Virus record (IMG/VR): IMGVR_UViG_3300032234_000384
Coordinates: 1-63,522 of that record
Origin: a virus
Taxonomy: Duplodnaviria > Caudoviricetes
Direction: 5' to 3' (one strand)
Length of the DNA stretch: 63,522 nt
Shown here in pieces: positions 288-32,561 of this stretch (positions are counted from its first letter, which is position 1; each line of letters begins with the position of its first letter). The position numbers and the translations under genes are program-made. The notes under the pieces were generated by a model. It ran no database searches and had not been told where the DNA came from. It saw only the letters and a program-made list of their open reading frames with translations.

Positions 288-2315
288 TTATTGTTTCTGT
301 GAATTGGGTCTGGTCTTAAGAACCGGCTCAATCTCTACGGTATCACGTGGCTTTCCTGTCATAGTAGTGCCACCTTGCATTGTAATCTTGGCTGCGGGTT
401 TGTCATCCTTTTCCCAATCATATAAGCTCTCATTTTTACCCTTCTTTTTATAGATGGATTTAATGATACGTGCTGATTTCAGGTTCTTTTTACGTTGTTC
501 GGACTCCATAGCCTTCACAGAGTTTGTTGCTGACAATGGTGAATCTTCGATACCACCAATACCTTCTTTTACAACATCTTCTTTGACAGACTTCCAACCG
601 CCACCTTTTGACTTATACCATTTAGATGCCCAACCGTTTGCATATGCGGAAGGATAAACATCAAACTTGGAACGTGCCAGAGATTTTGCTCTGGACCAAA
701 GAGATGGATTTGTTGGACTATTTTTTTCGTCAATTTGTTCCACTTCTTCATTTTTTGGTACGCAATTAGGAACTACTTTACCACCCTTCATTTTTGTACC
801 AACTTGTTTGTGTGTATCCCAACATGCTTCATCAACGGTTTCTTCACCCAGTTTACCCTTACCATAATTCGAAACATTAATAGGTTTACCACCTTTACCT
901 GCACGGTCAGCAACAGGATCATGCTTGCGTTTAGTTGCTACTGCGGCCGCACGTTCACTCTTACTTAATTCAGCACGTTTTTCTTTTGACATGCATTTTG
1001 GTTTTGGTTCACCTGGCTCTCTGGCGCAAGGACCTGCAACTTCACCCTTTGAGTTGATTCTTTTCCAATCACCTTCAGGATCAGTTTTGCTAAACCACTT
1101 ACGTAAATCTTCACGTGTAATGCGGCTATCAAGTTCTTGATTATCGTCTTGATTTTTCAATTCGTTAATTTTTTTAGCATCATTATCAAATTGTTTTCTG
1201 GTGGCTTTCATGATACCAGAGAAACGTTTGTTACCTTTCGAATAATCACCAGCTTTGTCTGCGGCAGATGCTTGAGCACCAGCGGCTTTCTTGTATCGTC
1301 CTAGAAGGTCGGAAGAAAGTTCATCAATTTGTTCAGTTTCTTCTGAGTGGTATTGTTTTTGAATCTGACTACCATATCCGCCAATATCCAACTTCTTAGG
1401 AGTTTTGTCAGCATATGTACCTAAACGCTTGTCTGCATCGGCACGATTGATACCTTTAGAACGCTTGTTGGCTGTTGCATGGTATTCTTTACTGCTGATT
1501 TCACCAGCATGTCGAGCCACTGCATTTGCACCAAGAGATTTGTGTGCGGCAGTTTTGTAACTTTGAAGTGTGGTCGATTTCAATTCATCAATACGTTCAA
1601 TTTCTTCTTTGATTGCAACAATTTTATTGTACATGTCCATAGACAATGCACCTTCACCACGCATGTTGATTAGATTCTCAACAACTTTGTGTAGGTCCAT
1701 ATCAGTCTTTGCATCTTCACGTGCATACTCCAGAACACGAATCAACAAAGGAATATCCATTGTTACAGTGTCTTTAGCATCAACCGCTTCTTTCACTGGC
1801 TTCTTTTCTTCGTTCCAATCATCACCACGCTCACCCATACCGGATGTTTCTTTCATGTGGCGCATCTTGAAAATTCTGAATTCGGAAGAACGTGCATATG
1901 CTTTCTTTTGATTTCCATCCATGGTCAAAGGATTCAATCCTTTAGACTTAATAAAAGTCATTAGAAGACCAGTGCCGGCTTCATCAAGTTGTTCGGTTTC
2001 TTCGGAAACATCTTCTTGCTTCAAATTCTGTTTTTCACGGTCAAATGTGTGGCCAGATTTATAACGCTTAAAAGCATTTGAACGTGCATAAGAAGAACGT
2101 TGTGCAAAAGTCATAAACTCTGGATTGAATCCGAGTGAACGAATGTACTTCATCAAAAGACCATCCTCATTTAGGACTTCTTCTTTGACGGGTTGTGCAT
2201 ATTTTGCAGACCAAGGCTCCATTGGATCCTCATATGGTGAATCGCCAAGTTTGCCCATAACAGACTCTTTCTTGGCCTTCACTATGTCCTTGACTAATTT
2301 ACCAGCTTTGCTCAT
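288..2315 (-). CDS. Modular internal head protein / polyprotein
   Basis: 675 aa; small basic modules separated by repeated E-(Q/R)-(I/L/V)-D-E linkers resembling gp21 cleavage sites. Confidence 0.6.
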   Translation of the reverse strand: MSKAGKLVKDIVKAKKESVMGKLGDSPYEDPMEPWSAKYAQPVKEEVLNEDGLLMKYIRSLGFNPEFMTFAQRSSYARSNAFKRYKSGHTFDREKQNLKQEDVSEETEQLDEAGTGLLMTFIKSKGLNPLTMDGNQKKAYARSSEFRIFKMRHMKETSGMGERGDDWNEEKKPVKEAVDAKDTVTMDIPLLIRVLEYAREDAKTDMDLHKVVENLINMRGEGALSMDMYNKIVAIKEEIERIDELKSTTLQSYKTAAHKSLGANAVARHAGEISSKEYHATANKRSKGINRADADKRLGTYADKTPKKLDIGGYGSQIQKQYHSEETEQIDELSSDLLGRYKKAAGAQASAADKAGDYSKGNKRFSGIMKATRKQFDNDAKKINELKNQDDNQELDSRITREDLRKWFSKTDPEGDWKRINSKGEVAGPCAREPGEPKPKCMSKEKRAELSKSERAAAVATKRKHDPVADRAGKGGKPINVSNYGKGKLGEETVDEACWDTHKQVGTKMKGGKVVPNCVPKNEEVEQIDEKNSPTNPSLWSRAKSLARSKFDVYPSAYANGWASKWYKSKGGGWKSVKEDVVKEGIGGIEDSPLSATNSVKAMESEQRKKNLKSARIIKSIYKKKGKNESLYDWEKDDKPAAKITMQGGTTMTGKPRDTVEIEPVLKTRPNSQKQ

Positions 2316-25498: not shown

Positions 25499-26920
25499 TT
25501 ACAGCACTTTGTAACGGTCATCCATGATGGTCTTAAGCATCACAGATTCTGGTGTGAAGGTTTCAATGTCACCAGCAAGGAGTGGCTTAACCACGGCTGG
25601 AGAGAAACCAGACACCAGTGCAGTACCAGACTTGTCAAACTTCACAGGCGCATTGCCATATGAAGCGTTCAAGTTCCAGAATACAACCTTTGGAAGGGTG
25701 TAGCCTGCGGCTTCGTACTTACGTGCAATCATTTCGATTGCAGAGTCATCATGCTTGACACATTGGTCAAATTGCATGTCTGACAGAATCAACACCATTC
25801 CTGGCATATCTTCTTGTGCTACGTTACCTTTTACAGCAACGTCTAGGATTTTTGCAAAGGCCTTGTTCAGGTCAGTGTTCATATCCCAGTTGGACTTAAC
25901 CATTTGGTCAATCTTAGAATTGATACCACCCTTTAGGTGCATCAATTCTGGCTTACCAGAGAAGGTCAAGAATGTGTCCTTGAACGCACCCTTGTTCTTG
26001 TCAGCAAGGTACAATCCCAAAGAGACTGCAACTTCCAAACAGGTCAACTTACCAGTCTTGCCTGCGGTGCAGGTCATAGAACCAGATACGTCAACCAGAG
26101 GCAGAATGTTTGCATCACCAACATAGTTAGGCAATGCATTCCATTGTGCTTCAATCAAGTCCATTTCGGTCTTGTTGTATGTAACTCCATAGTTGGAGAT
26201 ACGACCCTTCAACACATCATATGGAAATACCGCAGATGCGTTAACCTTAACTTCAGGGTTATCACCCTTCACCAAAGATGCAACATATGCCGCATACTTT
26301 TCAGTGTTACGGTTGAAAGCCTTTTTGTAACGTGCAGACGCTACGGAAGGAACATGTGAGAAGTTAATGGAATCCCAGTCCTTTGCACACATGTTGGTTT
26401 CAACGACCTTGGTCATTTCGACCAAAGACTTACGGTAGAACTTTGGTGACATTCCGAAGAATGTACGGATTTCTGCCGCAATTGGACCTTGGCGAGGTGT
26501 CCACTTAGCCGCAAGTCCATTCTTTTCACGCAAAGCGTTACCGAGCATGGTGTATGCGGCTTCTTTCAGTGCCTTGGTCTTGAAGACAAACAAGTCATCC
26601 CAACGACCCAATTCTGGCACTTTAGCCAACAGAGCCTTAGCGGCTTCTGTATCAGTCTTTTCCAGATATACTAGGATATCACGGAAAAGTTGACGTTCAC
26701 CGGCACCACCACGTGCGTCACGTAGCCATGCGGCAACTCGTAGAGCCAATTCACGGTTCTCTGCCAAGGCAGCCGCAAATGCAGGCTTAATATCTTTTCC
26801 ACGGGATGCACCCGCATTGTAAAACAAATCTACCACCGCATTGGCAGTTGACTTGCGAGCCTTCATACCGTTTGTGGTACGGGCTTCTTGGTTCTTAACA
26901 GCTTCGACAAATGTTGACAT
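25499..26920 (-). CDS. DUF2828-type TROVE/Ro60-like protein with C-terminal vWA domain
   Basis: AAAAGGAG RBS; LRDARGGAGER, GRWDDL, AAKWTPR helical region; MIDAS DVSGSM and SDMQFD, VFWNL, SGFS. Confidence 0.8.
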   Translation of the reverse strand: MSTFVEAVKNQEARTTNGMKARKSTANAVVDLFYNAGASRGKDIKPAFAAALAENRELALRVAAWLRDARGGAGERQLFRDILVYLEKTDTEAAKALLAKVPELGRWDDLFVFKTKALKEAAYTMLGNALREKNGLAAKWTPRQGPIAAEIRTFFGMSPKFYRKSLVEMTKVVETNMCAKDWDSINFSHVPSVASARYKKAFNRNTEKYAAYVASLVKGDNPEVKVNASAVFPYDVLKGRISNYGVTYNKTEMDLIEAQWNALPNYVGDANILPLVDVSGSMTCTAGKTGKLTCLEVAVSLGLYLADKNKGAFKDTFLTFSGKPELMHLKGGINSKIDQMVKSNWDMNTDLNKAFAKILDVAVKGNVAQEDMPGMVLILSDMQFDQCVKHDDSAIEMIARKYEAAGYTLPKVVFWNLNASYGNAPVKFDKSGTALVSGFSPAVVKPLLAGDIETFTPESVMLKTIMDDRYKVL

Positions 26921-26939
26921 AATGAACTCCTTTTCAATC

Positions 26940-27060
26940 AACAGGTTAAACTTTTTGCATCCCCTATGCTACCATTACATTAGACACCCATTCGGGTGAG
27001 CCGGAATCGAACCGGTCTCGGGGTTTTCAGTTGCATTAAAATTGTTGCGGAACTTAACCT
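26940..27060 (-). ncRNA. Y-RNA-like RNA A1 containing a circularly permuted tRNA-Phe
   Basis: AGGTTAAG/TTTAACCT terminal stem, CCGCAA motif, then CTGAAAA, T-arm, closed acceptor stem, D-arm. Confidence 0.75.
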
Positions 27061-27068
27061 AAAAAAAC

Positions 27069-27168
27069 AACAGAATAGTTTTCTACTTTTTGATTTAAGT
27101 GAGAACTCGAAACTCACTATCTTATGATACGGGTATGAATCCGTGATAAGTGTTGCTGAAACTATTCT
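27069..27168 (-). ncRNA. Y-RNA-like RNA A2
   Basis: AGAATAG/CTATTCT stem, TTTCAGCAA; CAT-loop hairpin and T-arm-like hairpin. Confidence 0.7.
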
Positions 27169-27187
27169 AAAAATCTCCAAAAAAAAC

Positions 27188-27284
27188 AACAGAGTAGTTT
27201 GATTGCCACCTTGGCGATCACGCTAGTTTTGGTGCGTAACATAGGAATCGAACCTACAAATTTTGATTTTGCTGAACCTACTCT
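27188..27284 (-). ncRNA. Y-RNA-like RNA A3 with permuted tRNA domain
   Basis: AGAGTAG/CTACTCT stem, GTTCAGCAA; GTAGG-TTCGATT-CCTAT, GTTACGC-ACCA-loop-GCGTGAT, short D-arm. Confidence 0.75.
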
Positions 27285-27300
27285 AAAACTTTCAAAAAAT

Positions 27301-27522
27301 AACAGGATGGTCGGTTTGTATTTTAACTTGGTTCTTAAACCACAGAGTACCCTTACGGCAAATGCAACCCTCTGAAATCATATGGTTTACCATAATCTTT
27401 TCTGTCTTTCCAGAGTCCAATTTAGTTCAGGTTATTTCCCTAGCTTCGTAATTACACCTTACGGTGGTTCTCCTATAGAAGCACTTCAGCTTTAGTACGT
27501 TTAAACTTGCTGTATCCATCCT
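27301..27522 (-). ncRNA. Y-RNA-like RNA A4 (long)
   Basis: AGGATGG/CCATCCT stem, ATACAGCAA; ~200-nt multi-hairpin insert. Confidence 0.65.
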
Positions 27523-27550: not shown

Positions 27551-27579
27551 ATTATATCACGTTAAGTGTAATTTGTCAA
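27551..27579 (-). promoter_or_regulatory. Consensus sigma70 promoter for the A4-A1 / DUF2828 operon
   Basis: TTGACA-17-TATAAT. Confidence 0.85.
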
Positions 27580-28068: not shown

Positions 28069-28142
28069 TGGTGCTCTCAACAAGAATTGAACTTGTGTTT
28101 CACCCTTACCAAGGGTGTGTAATGCCATTATACTATGAGAGC
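28069..28142 (-). tRNA. tRNA-Thr(GGT)
   Basis: TTGGTAA loop, CCA. Confidence 0.9.
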
Positions 28143-28147
28143 GAAAT

Positions 28148-28275
28148 TGGTGGAGATGGTGGGATTCGAACCGCACACAAGAACTTTTACAGAGTTATAG
28201 CTTAGGTTGTTGCAGAACTTATCCTTTACAGGATAATTTTTTTGCTTTGCTATGCTACCATTACATCACATCTCC
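28148..28275 (-). ncRNA. tRNA-Tyr-like / Y-motif hybrid RNA A5
   Basis: GGAGATG/CATCTCC-ACCA acceptor, D-arm, inserted TTATCCT-GTAA-AGGATAA-GTTCTGCAA, CTGTAAA loop, T-arm. Confidence 0.75.
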
Positions 28276-28280
28276 AAAAT

Positions 28281-28355
28281 TGGTGGGGTGCCGCAGATTC
28301 AAACTGCGTTCTCTCGGCTTAAGAGGCCGGACTTCATCATCAAAGTTTGCTCCCC
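28281..28355 (-). tRNA. tRNA-Lys(CTT), atypical
   Basis: CTCTTAA loop, CCA; D-loop lacks GG. Confidence 0.75.
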
Positions 28356-28453
28356 ATATAGAAACACACTAACGAACCTGGTTGTGGGATTCGAACCCAC
28401 GTTTTCCCGTAGCACCAGCGGCACTGCTACTTACCGATCAATGTATTTCTATA
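28356..28453 (-). ncRNA. Long-terminal-stem ncRNA (family B) with internal T-arm
   Basis: TATAGAAATACATT/AGTGTGTTTCTATA stem; GTGGG-TTCGAAT-CCCAC inside. Confidence 0.6.
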
Positions 28454-30528: not shown

Positions 30529-30591
30529 AACAGAATAGTTTTTGCGTTTTCAATTACAAGTTGAATGCTTTATATTTGCTGAACCTATTCT
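30529..30591 (-). ncRNA. Y-RNA-like RNA A6 displaying a Thr(TGT) anticodon arm
   Basis: AGAATAG/CTATTCT, GTTCAGCAA; TTCAA-CTTGTAA-TTGAA. Confidence 0.72.
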
Positions 30592-30859: not shown

Positions 30860-30925
30860 AACAGGATGATTTTTGTCGCTAGACAACCAAAAAGTTTAGC
30901 TAATTTTATTTGCTGTACTCATCCT
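30860..30925 (-). ncRNA. Y-RNA-like RNA A7
   Basis: AGGATGA/TCATCCT, GTACAGCAA; hairpin with TTTTGGT loop. Confidence 0.68.
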
Positions 30926-31355: not shown

Positions 31356-31443
31356 TGGTGGAGCCTGAAGGAATCGAACCATCCGCCAACCACCCCTCAA
31401 TTAAAGGCAACGGATTTACAGTCCGCTGAGAGGAACAGGCTCC
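31356..31443 (-). tRNA. tRNA-Tyr(GTA) lacking a normal D-arm
   Basis: GCGGA-CTGTAAA-TCCGT, T-arm, ACCA; 10-nt D region and 25-nt variable region. Confidence 0.65.
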
Positions 31444-31451
31444 AAAAATAC

Positions 31452-31511
31452 AACAGAATCCGCTTTTAGTTTCATTTTCAGTGAAAGTTTTTTATTTGCT
31501 GAATGGATTCT
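31452..31511 (-). ncRNA. Y-RNA-like RNA A8 displaying a Phe(GAA) anticodon arm
   Basis: AGAATCC/GGATTCT, ATTCAGCAA; TTTCA-CTGAAAA-TGAAA. Confidence 0.72.
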
Positions 31512-32469: not shown

Positions 32470-32561
32470 TGGTACCTCGACTGAGAATCGAACTCAGATG
32501 AACCAATTATCTGTTGCTTACGGGATATAAATCCGCCGTTTTACCATTAAACTACCGAGGC
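32470..32561 (-). tRNA. tRNA-Ile(TAT) with an extra arm
   Basis: TTTATAT loop; extra hairpin AAGCAA-CAGATAA-TTGGTT; ACCA. Confidence 0.7.

Follow-up and report, generated by a model that had tools for sequence, protein, structure and literature searches.

A tRNA-Tyr-shaped RNA with an internal hairpin handle, encoded near a predicted Ro-like protein in a T4-like phage, suggests a new form of Y RNA

The window, the whole 63,522-nt stretch of DNA analysed here, comes from a T4-like phage. At 28148..28275 on the minus strand, within the phage tRNA array, lies a 128-nt gene for a tRNA-Tyr-like RNA bearing an internal hairpin and motif, which we termed the handle. As a whole, this element matches our covariance model at 162.6 bits. 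Its neighbours in the array, each beyond a 5-nt spacer, are upstream a tRNA-Lys(CUU)-like gene (28281-28355) and downstream tRNA-Thr(GGU) (28069-28142). The element is located 1.2 kb upstream of a DUF2828/DUF7788 gene on the same strand (25499..26920, minus strand; PHROG 850, ‘RNA-binding protein’), whose product has a predicted Ro60 fold. Between them, also on the minus strand, a permuted tRNA-like RNA, unit 4 (26943..27060; A1 in the original prediction), ends within the 5′ UTR of the DUF2828 gene. Three more handle-closed units are found on this strand at 27072-27168, 27191-27284 and 27304-27522, and a perfect sigma-70-type promoter (27551-27579) lies upstream of these three, which span 27072..27522. 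Small handle-closed units sit between tRNA genes at 30532-30591, 30863-30925 and 31455-31511, again on the minus strand.

The element contains every part that had been predicted for it, all on the minus strand: acceptor, D arm, hairpin with motif, anticodon arm and T arm. The 5′ strand of the acceptor stem, GGAGAUG (28269..28275), pairs with 28152-28158; all 16 distinct sequences of the element keep the 7 pairs, 5 of which show changes on both sides. The 3′ strand, CAUCUCC, runs into the discriminator A and a genome-encoded CCA (28148..28158). The D arm, AUGU-AAUGGUA-GCAU (28252..28266), is invariant across relatives and the same as that of unit 4. It is followed by a possible position-27 G and the A-rich 5′ linker of the handle, CAAAGCAAAAAAA (28237..28250), nearly invariant in relatives, and then by the handle hairpin UUAUCCU-GUAA-AGGAUAA (28219..28236), whose 7 pairs are kept in all 16 sequences with 3 compensatory changes. 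The single-stranded motif GUUCUGCAACAA (28207..28218) has the core C-N-G-C-A-A common to all the stand-alone units. The T arm GUG(C)GG-UUCGAAU-CCCAC (28159..28176) keeps 5 of 5 pairs, two of them compensatory; its stem, GUG(C)GG/CCCAC, has one bulged nucleotide, a C or U, in every relative (16/16). The anticodon arm U-AACU-CUGUAAA-AGUU-C (28181..28197) carries the anticodon GUA (Tyr) and is invariant in 16/16 sequences, which suggests a role for the anticodon itself, one that a plain tether model of this RNA leaves unexplained.

The A-rich tract, the 7-bp hairpin and the GUUCUGCAACAA motif together form an insert of about 52 nt, which interrupts the anticodon stem in its 5′ strand. This stem has 4 contiguous base pairs, and 5 only if read across the insert: the G after position 26 may pair with the C after AGUU, which would place the insert inside the 5′ strand of a 5-bp stem. 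Because both bases are invariant, the 5-bp reading stays inferred. A GCAA/UUGU helix closing the insert was considered and rejected, as most relatives have GCAU, with one pair lost. When the insert is taken out, a cloverleaf of exactly 75 nt is left. The element has the 7-bp acceptor, the discriminator with CCA, the D arm with GG and the UUCGAAU-type T loop of a canonical tRNA, and at 128 nt is longer than the canonical range (about 70-95 nt). Judged from sequence, its body is complete, tRNA-shaped and related to tRNA-Tyr.

With bacterial-type (class II) tRNA-Tyr the element has in common the GGAG acceptor start, A73, the CUGUAAA anticodon loop and the encoded CCA. It differs in its variable loop of 4 nt, the insert in the anticodon stem, the bulged T stem and its length, class II tRNA-Tyr being 84-93 nt long. 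Relatives have canonical phage tRNA-Tyr genes that likewise show G1-C72, A73 and GUA, together with a long variable arm that the element lacks. That arm is the site cut by the Septu and retron PtuAB nucleases. Of two complete relatives, one (G001) has the element and one canonical tRNA-Tyr gene, and the other (G002) the element and two; the element is thus not needed as the only Tyr decoder. ARAGORN found no canonical tRNA-Tyr in the window.

A covariance model made from 5 copies was scanned against 100 sources, in which it detects 23 full copies of the element at 133-163 bits; ordinary tRNAs score 35 bits or less. We compared 16 distinct sequences, taken from phages whose Ro-like proteins share 68-96% identity with that of the window: 432 of 432 pair cells are paired, 10 of the 27 pairs show changes on both sides, and none shows a change on one side only. 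This pairing was reached by 0 of 500 shuffles. The element is under selection, its structure kept with compensatory changes. The hairpin loop of the handle is GUAA, GACA, GAUA or a 6-nt loop in relatives. The original prediction would have failed had homologs lost the motif; these sequences keep it. The minimum-free-energy fold of the element alone (−29 kcal/mol, z = −2.05) yields the acceptor, D and handle helices and misses the T arm, and 8 of 200 shuffles folded as well; single-sequence folding is therefore weak evidence here.

Standard searches largely pass the element by. ARAGORN, run on the window, calls it neither as a tRNA nor as a tmRNA, and RF00005 of Rfam does not match it at E-values up to 10. 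The only Rfam family with any match is tmRNA, at 18.3 bits, below the gathering score of 47. tmRNA and the element have in common a tRNA-like acceptor and T arm and a large internal insert; the element differs from tmRNA in having a D arm and an anticodon arm and in lacking a tag reading frame and pseudoknots. In the phage collection, a 2-kb query of the region returned no close DNA relatives and a 128-nt query just a T-arm match.

The handle follows a simple grammar: an A-rich tract; a 7-bp stem whose 5′ strand starts with AG and whose 3′ strand ends with CU, followed by G; and the motif N-Y-H-C-N-G-C-A-A. The closing pairs of the stem are U-A and C-G, and the element has all features of this grammar. 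Seven Y-RNA-like units with perfect stems closed by the handle are found in the tRNA region of the window, against 3.44 looser hits in each shuffled window; for the hairpin-plus-motif pattern, shuffles give an expectation of 0.1 per window on both strands. The pattern by which we collected 32 distinct handle instances from 10 phages demanded C-N-G-C-A, a stem of 7 perfect base pairs and a G following the 3′ strand, so these three features are invariant across the instances by design. It left free the A-rich tract, the AG/CU closing pairs and the final A; the tract precedes the 3′ strand in 23-26 of the 32 instances. In the window, GUUG and a U-rich run follow the 3′ strand of each unit; outside the lineage of the window this U-rich tail is not kept. 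A pairing of the motif with the GUUGUU tail in one unit was rejected on geometric reasoning, as it would form a pseudoknot with no loop spanning the 7-bp stem.

Unit 4 is composed, in order, of the handle 5′ strand with GUUCCGCAACAA, the T arm, a closed acceptor hairpin, the D arm, the A-rich tract and the handle 3′ strand. The 5′ half of the element aligns with the 3′ half of unit 4, including a 17-nt D-arm stretch identical in the two (26965-26981 of the window). The 3′ half of the element aligns to two parts of the 5′ half of unit 4, namely its first 19 nt and its T loop. Opposite halves thus correspond, which bears out the prediction that the element is the topological inverse of this unit. 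By this alignment, the element and the YrlA-like unit adjoining the DUF2828 gene are circular permutations of each other. The comparison indicates a permutation relationship and carries no order of events, and so gives no direction to the earlier idea of an evolutionary intermediate between tRNA and Y RNA.

The protein encoded next to these units had been proposed to be Ro-like. Its model (pLDDT 77.8, pTM 0.80) has as its 13 best fold matches only Ro60/Rsr/TROVE chains, including phage Ro60, with E-values of 2.9e-7 to 4.7e-5 and moderate query-normalised TM-scores of 0.38-0.57, consistent with that proposal. By sequence, neither the single protein nor an 18-sequence profile significantly matched any solved structure, and Pfam at E-values up to 10 assigned no TROVE or vWA family; the predicted relation to Ro60 is seen by fold only. 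The DUF2828 family (PHROG 850) has 700 matching records in the phage collection and occurs in T4-like, FelixO1-like, Campylobacter, Listeria and mycobacterial phages.

Within the flanks fetched, a handle is found near the DUF2828 gene in 8 of the 9 cultured phages examined; the exception is Serratia phage BF, with no handle within 2.5 kb of the gene. Together with the seven stand-alone units that it closes in the window, this agrees with the earlier idea of the motif as a portable module. Across six loci from cultured phages (50.4 kb), 11 perfect-stem handle hits lie on the strand of the DUF2828 gene and 0 on the opposite strand. Units are positioned about 40-350 nt from the gene in Campylobacter phage NCTC12673, Listeria phage LP-083-2, Mycobacterium phage Rumpelstiltskin and Stenotrophomonas phage DLP_6, and a unit overlaps the DUF2828 5′ UTR both in the window and in DLP_6. 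The 7.4-kb locus of Rumpelstiltskin gave zero tRNA hits, and handles flank its DUF2828 gene, which links the handle to that gene and not to tRNA arrays. Rfam matches in the six loci were of tRNA type, with no Y RNA family, in a library that may lack a YrlA model. The handle is also found in 3 of 3 relatives with a DUF2828 gene (G001-G003). The Tyr-type element lies within 4 kb of the gene in only 5 of the 80 loci fetched around DUF2828 genes; in complete relatives the two are 6.8 to about 10 kb apart. T4 lacks a DUF2828 homolog and has, in its tRNA region, no convincing handle beyond one stray pattern match of another form. We considered the T4 stable RNAs rnaC and rnaD as relatives and rejected them, as no handle was seen and T4 is without the gene.

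The same design, a native-end tRNA with an internal handle, is encoded by five cultured T4-like phages, there with different anticodon-like loops: Cronobacter S13, Citrobacter Ci1, Synechococcus BUCT-ZZ01, Vibrio KVP40 and Vibrio nt-1. It is also present in L050. RNAs whose loops are Asp-, Gly-, Glu- or Met-like also carry the insert, and in S13 RNA 1 and KVP40 Pseudo-4 and Pseudo-5 the handle substitutes for the anticodon loop entirely. Related RNAs of S13, KVP40 and BUCT-ZZ01 pass RF00005 at 40.9-56.9 bits. Oversize genes labelled ‘tRNA-Pseudo’, ‘tRNA-OTHER’ or ‘tRNA-Ser’ are on record for KVP40, phi-pp2, S13, Ci1 and Aeromonas phage Ahp1. The genes of KVP40, S13, Ci1 and nt-1 resemble the element in acceptor, D arm, A-rich linker, T arm and CCA, and in a 7-bp hairpin with a G-started tetraloop (GACA, GAUA, GAAA or GUUA) followed by the C-N-G-C-A motif; unlike the element, S13 has a Gly UCC and Ci1 a Glu UUC anticodon-like loop. 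The oversize tRNA genes of phi-pp2 and Aeromonas phage Ahp1 are known here by similarity hits and labels alone. In phage records such genes are treated as tRNAs or pseudogenes, KVP40 and Ci1 using the label tRNA-Pseudo. We found no paper linking oversize phage tRNA-Pseudo genes to a DUF2828 gene. Nor did we find a description of the handle-bearing RNA class in the literature on DUF2828, phage tRNA-like RNAs, KVP40 pseudo-tRNAs or phage Y RNAs; the supplementary tables on YrlA in phages of PMC4201824 may name some of these phages.

Ro60 and Y RNAs constitute an RNA quality-control system that is much studied and poorly understood. The known bacterial partners of Ro60, the YrlA RNAs, are permuted tRNA mimics. 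YrlA mimics tRNA, and the M. smegmatis form is cleaved by RNase P and has CCA added (Chen et al., 2014; PMC4201824). A motif, GNCGAAN0-1G, lies near the 5′ end of YrlA (PMC4201824). Compared with this description, the element likewise lies near a Ro60-fold gene on the same strand and has tRNA-like D and T arms, an acceptor stem and a short motif beside a stem. It differs in topology: in YrlA the Ro-binding stem is built from the two ends and the acceptor is closed into a hairpin, whereas the element has native acceptor ends with an encoded CCA, holds the handle as an internal hairpin and, unlike YrlA as described there, has a full anticodon arm (GUA). The motifs also differ, (G/U)UUCNGCAA with C-N-G-C-A-A in the element versus GNCGAAN0-1G in YrlA (PMC4201824), as do the proteins, that of the window belonging to DUF2828/DUF7788 with no TROVE match, unlike the partner in the YrlA system described. 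The second comparison is Thermus phage phiLo, whose Ro60, as reported in the relevant passages of PMC12135203, binds two upstream Y-like RNAs (Yrl1/Yrl2) and host PNPase. The window resembles that arrangement in having a phage-encoded Ro60-fold protein with Y-like RNAs upstream (PMC12135203), and the solved phiLo protein (9l5y, 9kop) is among the best fold matches of the window protein. In those passages Yrl1/Yrl2 are stem-bulge-stem RNAs with a CGAA motif; they are not described there as tRNA-like, and no native-end tRNA form is mentioned (PMC12135203).

Our favoured explanation, which we hold to be somewhat probable, is that the phage Ro-like protein has in the element a partner of Y-RNA type, circularly permuted with respect to YrlA-like RNAs, with the handle as candidate binding site. 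Its tethering to the protein is proposed from genomic association and by analogy with Ro60 and Y RNA. According to this model, the element would be co-transcribed with the tRNA array and released like any tRNA by RNase P and 3′ trimming, giving native ends with CCA. The handle would be the putative site bound by the DUF2828 Ro-like protein; if such binding occurs, the product would be a Y-RNA-type ribonucleoprotein. The tRNA body may remain exposed for tRNA-recognising proteins, as proposed for the YrlA tRNA-like domain. The likeliest setting, and a speculative one, would be a conflict over tRNAs, involving damage, repair or quality control. Counted against this explanation are a handle motif that differs from the GNCGAA/CGAA described for known Ro60 partners in the sources cited above, Serratia phage BF without a handle, the 5 of 80 loci and the moderate fold match.

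We also asked whether the element could be a working, chargeable tRNA-Tyr used in translation, its inserted arm being tolerated or replacing the long variable arm. Its core is complete (U8, D-loop GG, UUCGAAU T loop, a possible A15-U48, G1-C72, A73, GUA and CCA), the acceptor starts with GGAG like the canonical tRNA-Tyr of relatives, the anticodon arm does not change, and ARAGORN calls no canonical tRNA-Tyr in the window. A corollary would be that the 4-nt variable loop confers immunity to nucleases that cut the tRNA-Tyr variable arm. We nevertheless consider this unlikely: complete relatives have canonical tRNA-Tyr besides, the insert is also carried by Asp-, Gly-, Glu- and Met-like (class I) RNAs, and the handle replaces the anticodon loop in S13 RNA 1 and KVP40 Pseudo-4/Pseudo-5. 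Furthermore, the contiguous anticodon stem is just 4 bp and AU-rich, the T stem is bulged, and the ribosome may not accommodate a branch of about 52 nt at the D/anticodon hinge. A related and quite unlikely reading combines the two functions, the RNAs being “armoured” tRNAs, truly chargeable and equipped with a docking site for the phage Ro-like protein. If so, the Ro-like partner would shield the element, check its quality or recruit repair, and the Tyr member, without the long variable arm, would escape the cut site of Septu and retron PtuAB. Different phages would then have a defence-proof supply of chosen tRNAs in the Tyr, Asp, Gly, Glu and Met forms.

The position of small handle units between tRNA genes, the GUUG and U-rich run after the 3′ strands of units in the window, and the unit overlapping the DUF2828 5′ UTR in the window and in DLP_6 would fit a signal for processing or regulating the tRNA operon (an RNase site or attenuator), trapped in a tRNA and unrelated to the DUF2828 protein. 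We regard this as improbable, since in Rumpelstiltskin handles flank the DUF2828 gene in a locus with no tRNA hit, the U-rich tail is not kept in other lineages, and the hairpin within the element is kept by compensatory changes although no end is needed there. A 7-bp stem is a short substrate for RNase III, which also argues against such a signal. Very improbable in our view is an intron-like insert, excised by some endonuclease and its flanking halves rejoined by a phage RNA ligase into a 75-nt class-I-like tRNA-Tyr. The exact cloverleaf left after removal is compatible with such splicing, as are the RNA ligase or RtcB genes adjoining DUF2828 genes in Serratia BF and Listeria LP-083-2. The insert, however, is much too short for a group I intron and lies outside the anticodon loop, no Rfam intron family matches at E-values up to 10, inspection by eye showed no bulge-helix-bulge motif, and the same module occurs as stem-closed stand-alone units. 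Bacteria are not known to have the enzyme that cuts bulge-helix-bulge motifs. That the element represents a tRNA pseudogene in decay, its insert a product of chance, as the tRNA-Pseudo labels of the related KVP40 and Ci1 genes and the missing ARAGORN and Rfam calls in the window might imply, is barely credible and is refuted by the covariation (100% pairing and 10 compensatory pairs in 16 distinct sequences), the design being kept in distant phages as well.

The quite unlikely “armoured” reading has a further corollary, which concerns tandem YrlA-like units. If RNase P cuts the closed acceptor loops of such units, the RNA between two cuts would have exactly the architecture of the element; a single repeating array would then be read in two phases, one giving Y RNAs and the other handle-bearing tRNAs. 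More generally, the handle design would account for a set of oversize “pseudo-tRNA” annotations in phages such as KVP40 and S13, and its conserved motif is a candidate ligand for the large DUF2828 family (PHROG 850). A Ro-type handle can sit in an otherwise complete tRNA with native ends, encoded CCA and an anticodon arm, making the question of whether Y RNAs act as tRNAs directly testable. The element would thereby tie Ro-like proteins to the conflict between phage and host over tRNAs, tRNA-Tyr especially.

The RNA gene at 28148–28275 on the minus strand reads, as the original prediction had described it, as a 128-nt tRNA-like gene (the element). Its 5′ part runs from the 7-bp acceptor stem through U8, G9 and a D arm containing GG to A26. 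Next comes an insert of ~52 nt. Beyond it, the loop of the anticodon arm, CUGUAAA, presents the anticodon GUA, and the variable loop measures 4 nt; the T arm, whose loop is UUCGAAU, leads into the 3′ acceptor strand and ACCA. The T stem carries one bulged nucleotide, an addition to the earlier description. In the insert, an A-rich stretch precedes the hairpin UUAUCCU-GUAA-AGGAUAA, which is followed by the motif GUUCUGCAACAA and by a short linker; we term the combination of A-rich tract, 7-bp stem and C-N-G-C-A-A motif the handle. The G right after A26 is able to pair with the C behind the AGUU strand, a possible pairing that may extend the anticodon stem to 5 bp, with the insert breaking its 5′ strand after position 27. 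Related RNAs could form equivalent pairs (C27-G43 in locus L050; CGU then CC in BUCT-ZZ01; CG then AGC in Ci1). The position-27 pairing is beyond the reach of covariation, because both bases are invariant in the Tyr type. Neither ARAGORN nor Rfam detected the element in the window; the only Rfam family to match it was tmRNA, at 18.3 bits, far under the threshold of 47.

The 63.5-kb window comes from an uncultured virus record estimated to be ~38% complete. Its gene content is that of a T4-like myovirus: DNA polymerase, UvsX, UvsY, clamp, clamp loader, RegA, late sigma factor, major head protein, portal and tail sheath. The tRNA array lies on the minus strand from ~25.2 to 36.6 kb, with 29 tRNAs called by ARAGORN, and includes a DUF2828/DUF7788 gene (25499–26920, minus strand; 473 aa; Pfam domains; PHROG 850, "RNA-binding protein"). 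The element is spaced as the neighboring tRNA genes are: 5 nt separate it from its upstream neighbor, a tRNA-Lys(CUU)-like gene, and 5 nt from the downstream tRNA-Thr. The Lys-like gene (28281–28355, minus strand) combines an A-A mismatched acceptor stem with an unusual D loop and was not called in the window by ARAGORN or Rfam; ARAGORN calls a tRNA-Lys(ctt) at the equivalent position in L003, L004 and L038. Between it and tRNA-Phe, with no spacer on either side, is a 98-nt RNA (28356–28453, minus strand) that is closed by a stem of ~10 bp and contains an internal hairpin as well as a perfect T arm (GUGGG-UUCGAAU-CCCAC). It has no C-N-G-C-A-A motif and may be another sort of tRNA-like RNA. Elsewhere in the array, a 91–92-nt tRNA with a long extra arm (32470–32561, minus strand) has the anticodon UAU, unusual on a tRNA of class II size, and is called tRNA-Ile by ARAGORN; it is conserved among relatives (L024 549–639, L032 2221–2312, L108 7755–7846). 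ARAGORN also calls candidate suppressor tRNAs in complete relatives, UUA (ochre) in G003 (L110 3602–3678) and CUA (amber) in G002 (L109 7856–7930).

Is the element simply the phage's tRNA-Tyr? No tRNA-Tyr is among the 29 ARAGORN calls, and a canonical one is missing from the window's own lineage. Two complete relatives have canonical tRNA-Tyr genes in addition to the element, one in G001 and two in G002; the DUF2828 gene is present in 3/3 complete relatives. These genes (86–93 nt) share with the element the GGAG acceptor start, A73 and the anticodon loop, but have long variable arms where the element has a 4-nt loop. That the element may be a tRNA-Tyr without the variable arm is an attractive idea. 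The window also encodes a second tRNA-Tyr(GUA)-like gene (31356–31443, minus strand; 88 nt), missed by ARAGORN and Rfam and preceded by a small handle unit (31455–31511). Its acceptor is normal, and an anticodon arm, CCA and a bulged T stem are present, but a D arm is missing; CCUCU after position 9 is able to pair with AGGGG, found 3′ of the anticodon arm, and the L029 counterpart, CCCUU and GAGGG, is compensatory. The element is thus not necessarily the phage's tRNA-Tyr, and we regard a decoding tRNA-Tyr carrying an extra arm as unlikely, though the likeliest of the alternatives.

The arrangement of the insert also closes seven stand-alone RNAs, or units, all encoded on the minus strand in the tRNA region of the window. 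In all seven, the 5′ strand starts with AG, followed by N-U-U/A-C-N-G-C-A-A, and the partner strand ends with CU, followed by G. Shuffled windows gave 3.44 looser unit-type matches and 0.1 hairpin-type matches per window. Three small units lie among tRNA genes at 30.5–31.5 kb. The other four lie between a perfect sigma-70-type promoter (27551–27579, minus strand; 12/12 matches, 17-nt spacer, TG extension) and the DUF2828 start codon, the promoter itself sitting between tRNA-Arg(CCU) and these units. Unit 4 (26943–27060, minus strand), directly upstream of the DUF2828 gene, is a permuted form of tRNA: the handle 5′ strand with its motif, T arm, closed acceptor hairpin, D arm, A-rich tract, handle 3′ strand. 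The 5′ half of the element aligns with the 3′ half of unit 4, including an identical 17-nt D-arm stretch; the 3′ half starts as the 5′ half of unit 4 does (17 of the first 19 nt agree) and has the T loop in common with it. A single design, circularly permuted, therefore underlies both RNAs, in the inverse topology that had been proposed. Junctions between tandem units in relatives are sometimes near-hairpins of the handle type, which suggests one possible origin of the internal form. Only ~20 nt separate the 3′ strand of the last unit from the downstream start codon of DUF2828 (26921–26949, minus strand), and the ribosome-binding site directly follows that strand, an arrangement also present in Stenotrophomonas phage DLP_6 (L116 3950–4000). 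This abutment suggests that the DUF2828 protein may regulate its own translation.

Native-end tRNAs with an internal handle recur as a class. When we scanned for long tRNA frames (T arm, 7-bp acceptor, length 96–149 nt, internal C-N-G-C-A), the Tyr type and several others emerged. L050 has one copy with the loop AUGUCAA (Asp-like GUC). Two copies occur in Cronobacter S13, the first with a Gly-like UCC loop and a T stem bulged as in the element, the second with the handle in place of the loop of a closed anticodon stem. Citrobacter Ci1 has two copies, one with a Glu-like UUC loop; BUCT-ZZ01 two, one with a Met-like CAU loop; nt-1 three; and KVP40 four in tandem, two of them annotated tRNA-Pseudo-4 and tRNA-Pseudo-5. 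One hairpin pair changes from C-G to G-C between S13 and Ci1. Several of these RNAs pass the Rfam tRNA model with 41–57 bits, the insert being read as an insertion. Since loops differ or are missing among members, the anticodon-like hairpin is variable or absent across the class; inside the Tyr lineage it is frozen.

Full-length relatives of the DUF2828 protein occur in 700 records of the phage collection. We fetched the surroundings of the gene in nine cultured phages and found handles on the gene strand, inside the fetched flanks, in eight: Cronobacter S13, Synechococcus BUCT-ZZ01, Escherichia GEP101 (a Felixounavirus), Vibrio nt-1, Stenotrophomonas DLP_6, Campylobacter NCTC12673, Listeria LP-083-2 and Mycobacterium phage Rumpelstiltskin, where the closing pairs are UGG/CCA. 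In Serratia BF no handle was found within 2.5 kb of the gene. The first six loci (50.4 kb) gave 11 perfect-stem matches on the gene strand and 0 on the opposite strand. Units lie within a few hundred nt of the gene in the Campylobacter, Listeria, DLP_6 and Rumpelstiltskin phages. Recurrence in these phages, together with the seven units of the window, bears out the proposal of a portable module. No tRNA was found in the fetched Rumpelstiltskin locus; the association of the handle is therefore with the gene rather than with arrays of tRNAs. In T4, which lacks a DUF2828 homolog, the tRNA region gave no convincing handle, and the one stray pattern match there is of another form. The stable RNA species 1 of T4, one of rnaC and rnaD (L121 2409–2672, minus strand), has a perfect tRNA-like T arm near the 3′ end; neither RNA contains the handle. 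Given the association with the gene, we think it improbable that the handle is a processing or regulatory signal without relation to the DUF2828 protein. Among 32 distinct instances, C-N-G-C-A, the perfect stem and the G are invariant by construction, as the search pattern demanded them. Features that it did not demand are also frequent: closing pairs A-U (27/32) and G-C (31/32) and the final A of the motif (27/32). In the A-rich tract ahead of the 3′ strand, A occurs in 23–26 of the 32 at each of four positions.

To follow the element itself, 80 loci around relatives of the DUF2828 gene were fetched from IMG/VR, and 25 more by the exact 21-nt anticodon-arm string. A covariance model from five copies, run over 100 sources, found 23 full-length copies (133–163 bits), one copy truncated at a contig end, a copy with a replaced 5′ half (L100, 61 bits) and a single divergent relative, L050 (60 bits); no ordinary tRNA exceeded 35 bits. 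The L100 copy (372–544, minus strand) is broken, intact from the anticodon arm to CCA, with unrelated sequence as its 5′ half. The full copies comprise 16 distinct sequences; a 17th, L107, came from pattern scans outside the covariance-model search. In a MAFFT alignment of the 16 with a 27-pair structure, 432/432 pair cells are standard pairs. Both sides change in 10 pairs (5 in the acceptor stem, 3 in the handle hairpin, 2 in the T stem), and no one-sided changes were found. None of 500 shuffles matched the observed pairing or covariation score, and sliding the partner columns reduced pairing to 51% or less. The homologs for which the original prediction had proposed a search thus keep the handle hairpin, with 3 compensatory pairs. 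The D arm, A-rich linker and entire anticodon arm are invariant, which is silent on pairing but indicates a constraint on the sequence itself. These data show that the element is a conserved, structured, tRNA-shaped RNA under structural selection. That the insert is intron-like and excised appears more doubtful still than an unrelated signal. A pseudogene, the least credible reading, is rejected on the covariation in the paired stems.

The DUF2828 protein has no match in the PDB by sequence methods, and no TROVE family was found in it in Pfam. In an AlphaFold2 model from an 18-sequence alignment (pLDDT 77.8, pTM 0.80), a helical repeat domain leads into an alpha/beta domain. Foldseek placed Ro60, Rsr or TROVE chains in all of the first 13 ranks, a Thermus phage Ro60 included (499–558 alignment columns, E-values 2.9e-7 to 4.7e-5, query-normalised TM-scores 0.38–0.57); isolated vWA domains come next. 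As modeled, the protein has the Ro60 fold, in line with its original description as Ro-like. A bacterial Ro60–RtcB operon reportedly exists, and is echoed by an RtcB-like ligase 1.3 kb downstream of the DUF2828 gene in Listeria phage LP-083-2 (L119 5357–6509) and an RNA ligase directly upstream of it in Serratia phage BF (L120 819–2078). In the parts of the literature consulted, YrlA RNAs are permuted tRNA mimics encoded beside Ro60, with the motif GNCGAAN0-1G near the 5′ end, and that of M. smegmatis is cleaved by RNase P and gains CCA (PMC4201824); Thermus phage Ro60 is described as binding two Y-like RNAs that are encoded upstream and contain a CGAA motif, and as forming a complex with host PNPase (PMC12135203).

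The insert of the element is a module that closes Y-like units and accompanies Ro-fold DUF2828 genes in many phages. We suggest that the element would be co-transcribed with the tRNA array and excised from the transcript by RNase P and 3′ trimming, and that the DUF2828 protein would bind the handle. This would yield a particle of the Y-RNA type that exposes a complete tRNA, and the tRNA part might recruit or mimic a synthetase, repair ligase, PNPase or defence nuclease, all speculative candidates. As a whole, this reading, with the element as a Y-RNA-type partner whose handle is bound by the DUF2828 protein, is the one we favor, with moderate confidence. Ro-type proteins with tRNA-like Y RNAs are already known, phages included. 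In the literature searched, which did not extend to the supplementary tables of PMC4201824, we found no description of the inverse topology (native acceptor ends, CCA, real anticodon arm), of the C-N-G-C-A-A handle as apparent partner of the DUF2828 branch, or of a link between handle RNAs and "pseudo-tRNA" annotations. The element is of clear interest for research on Ro60, tRNA and phage defence.
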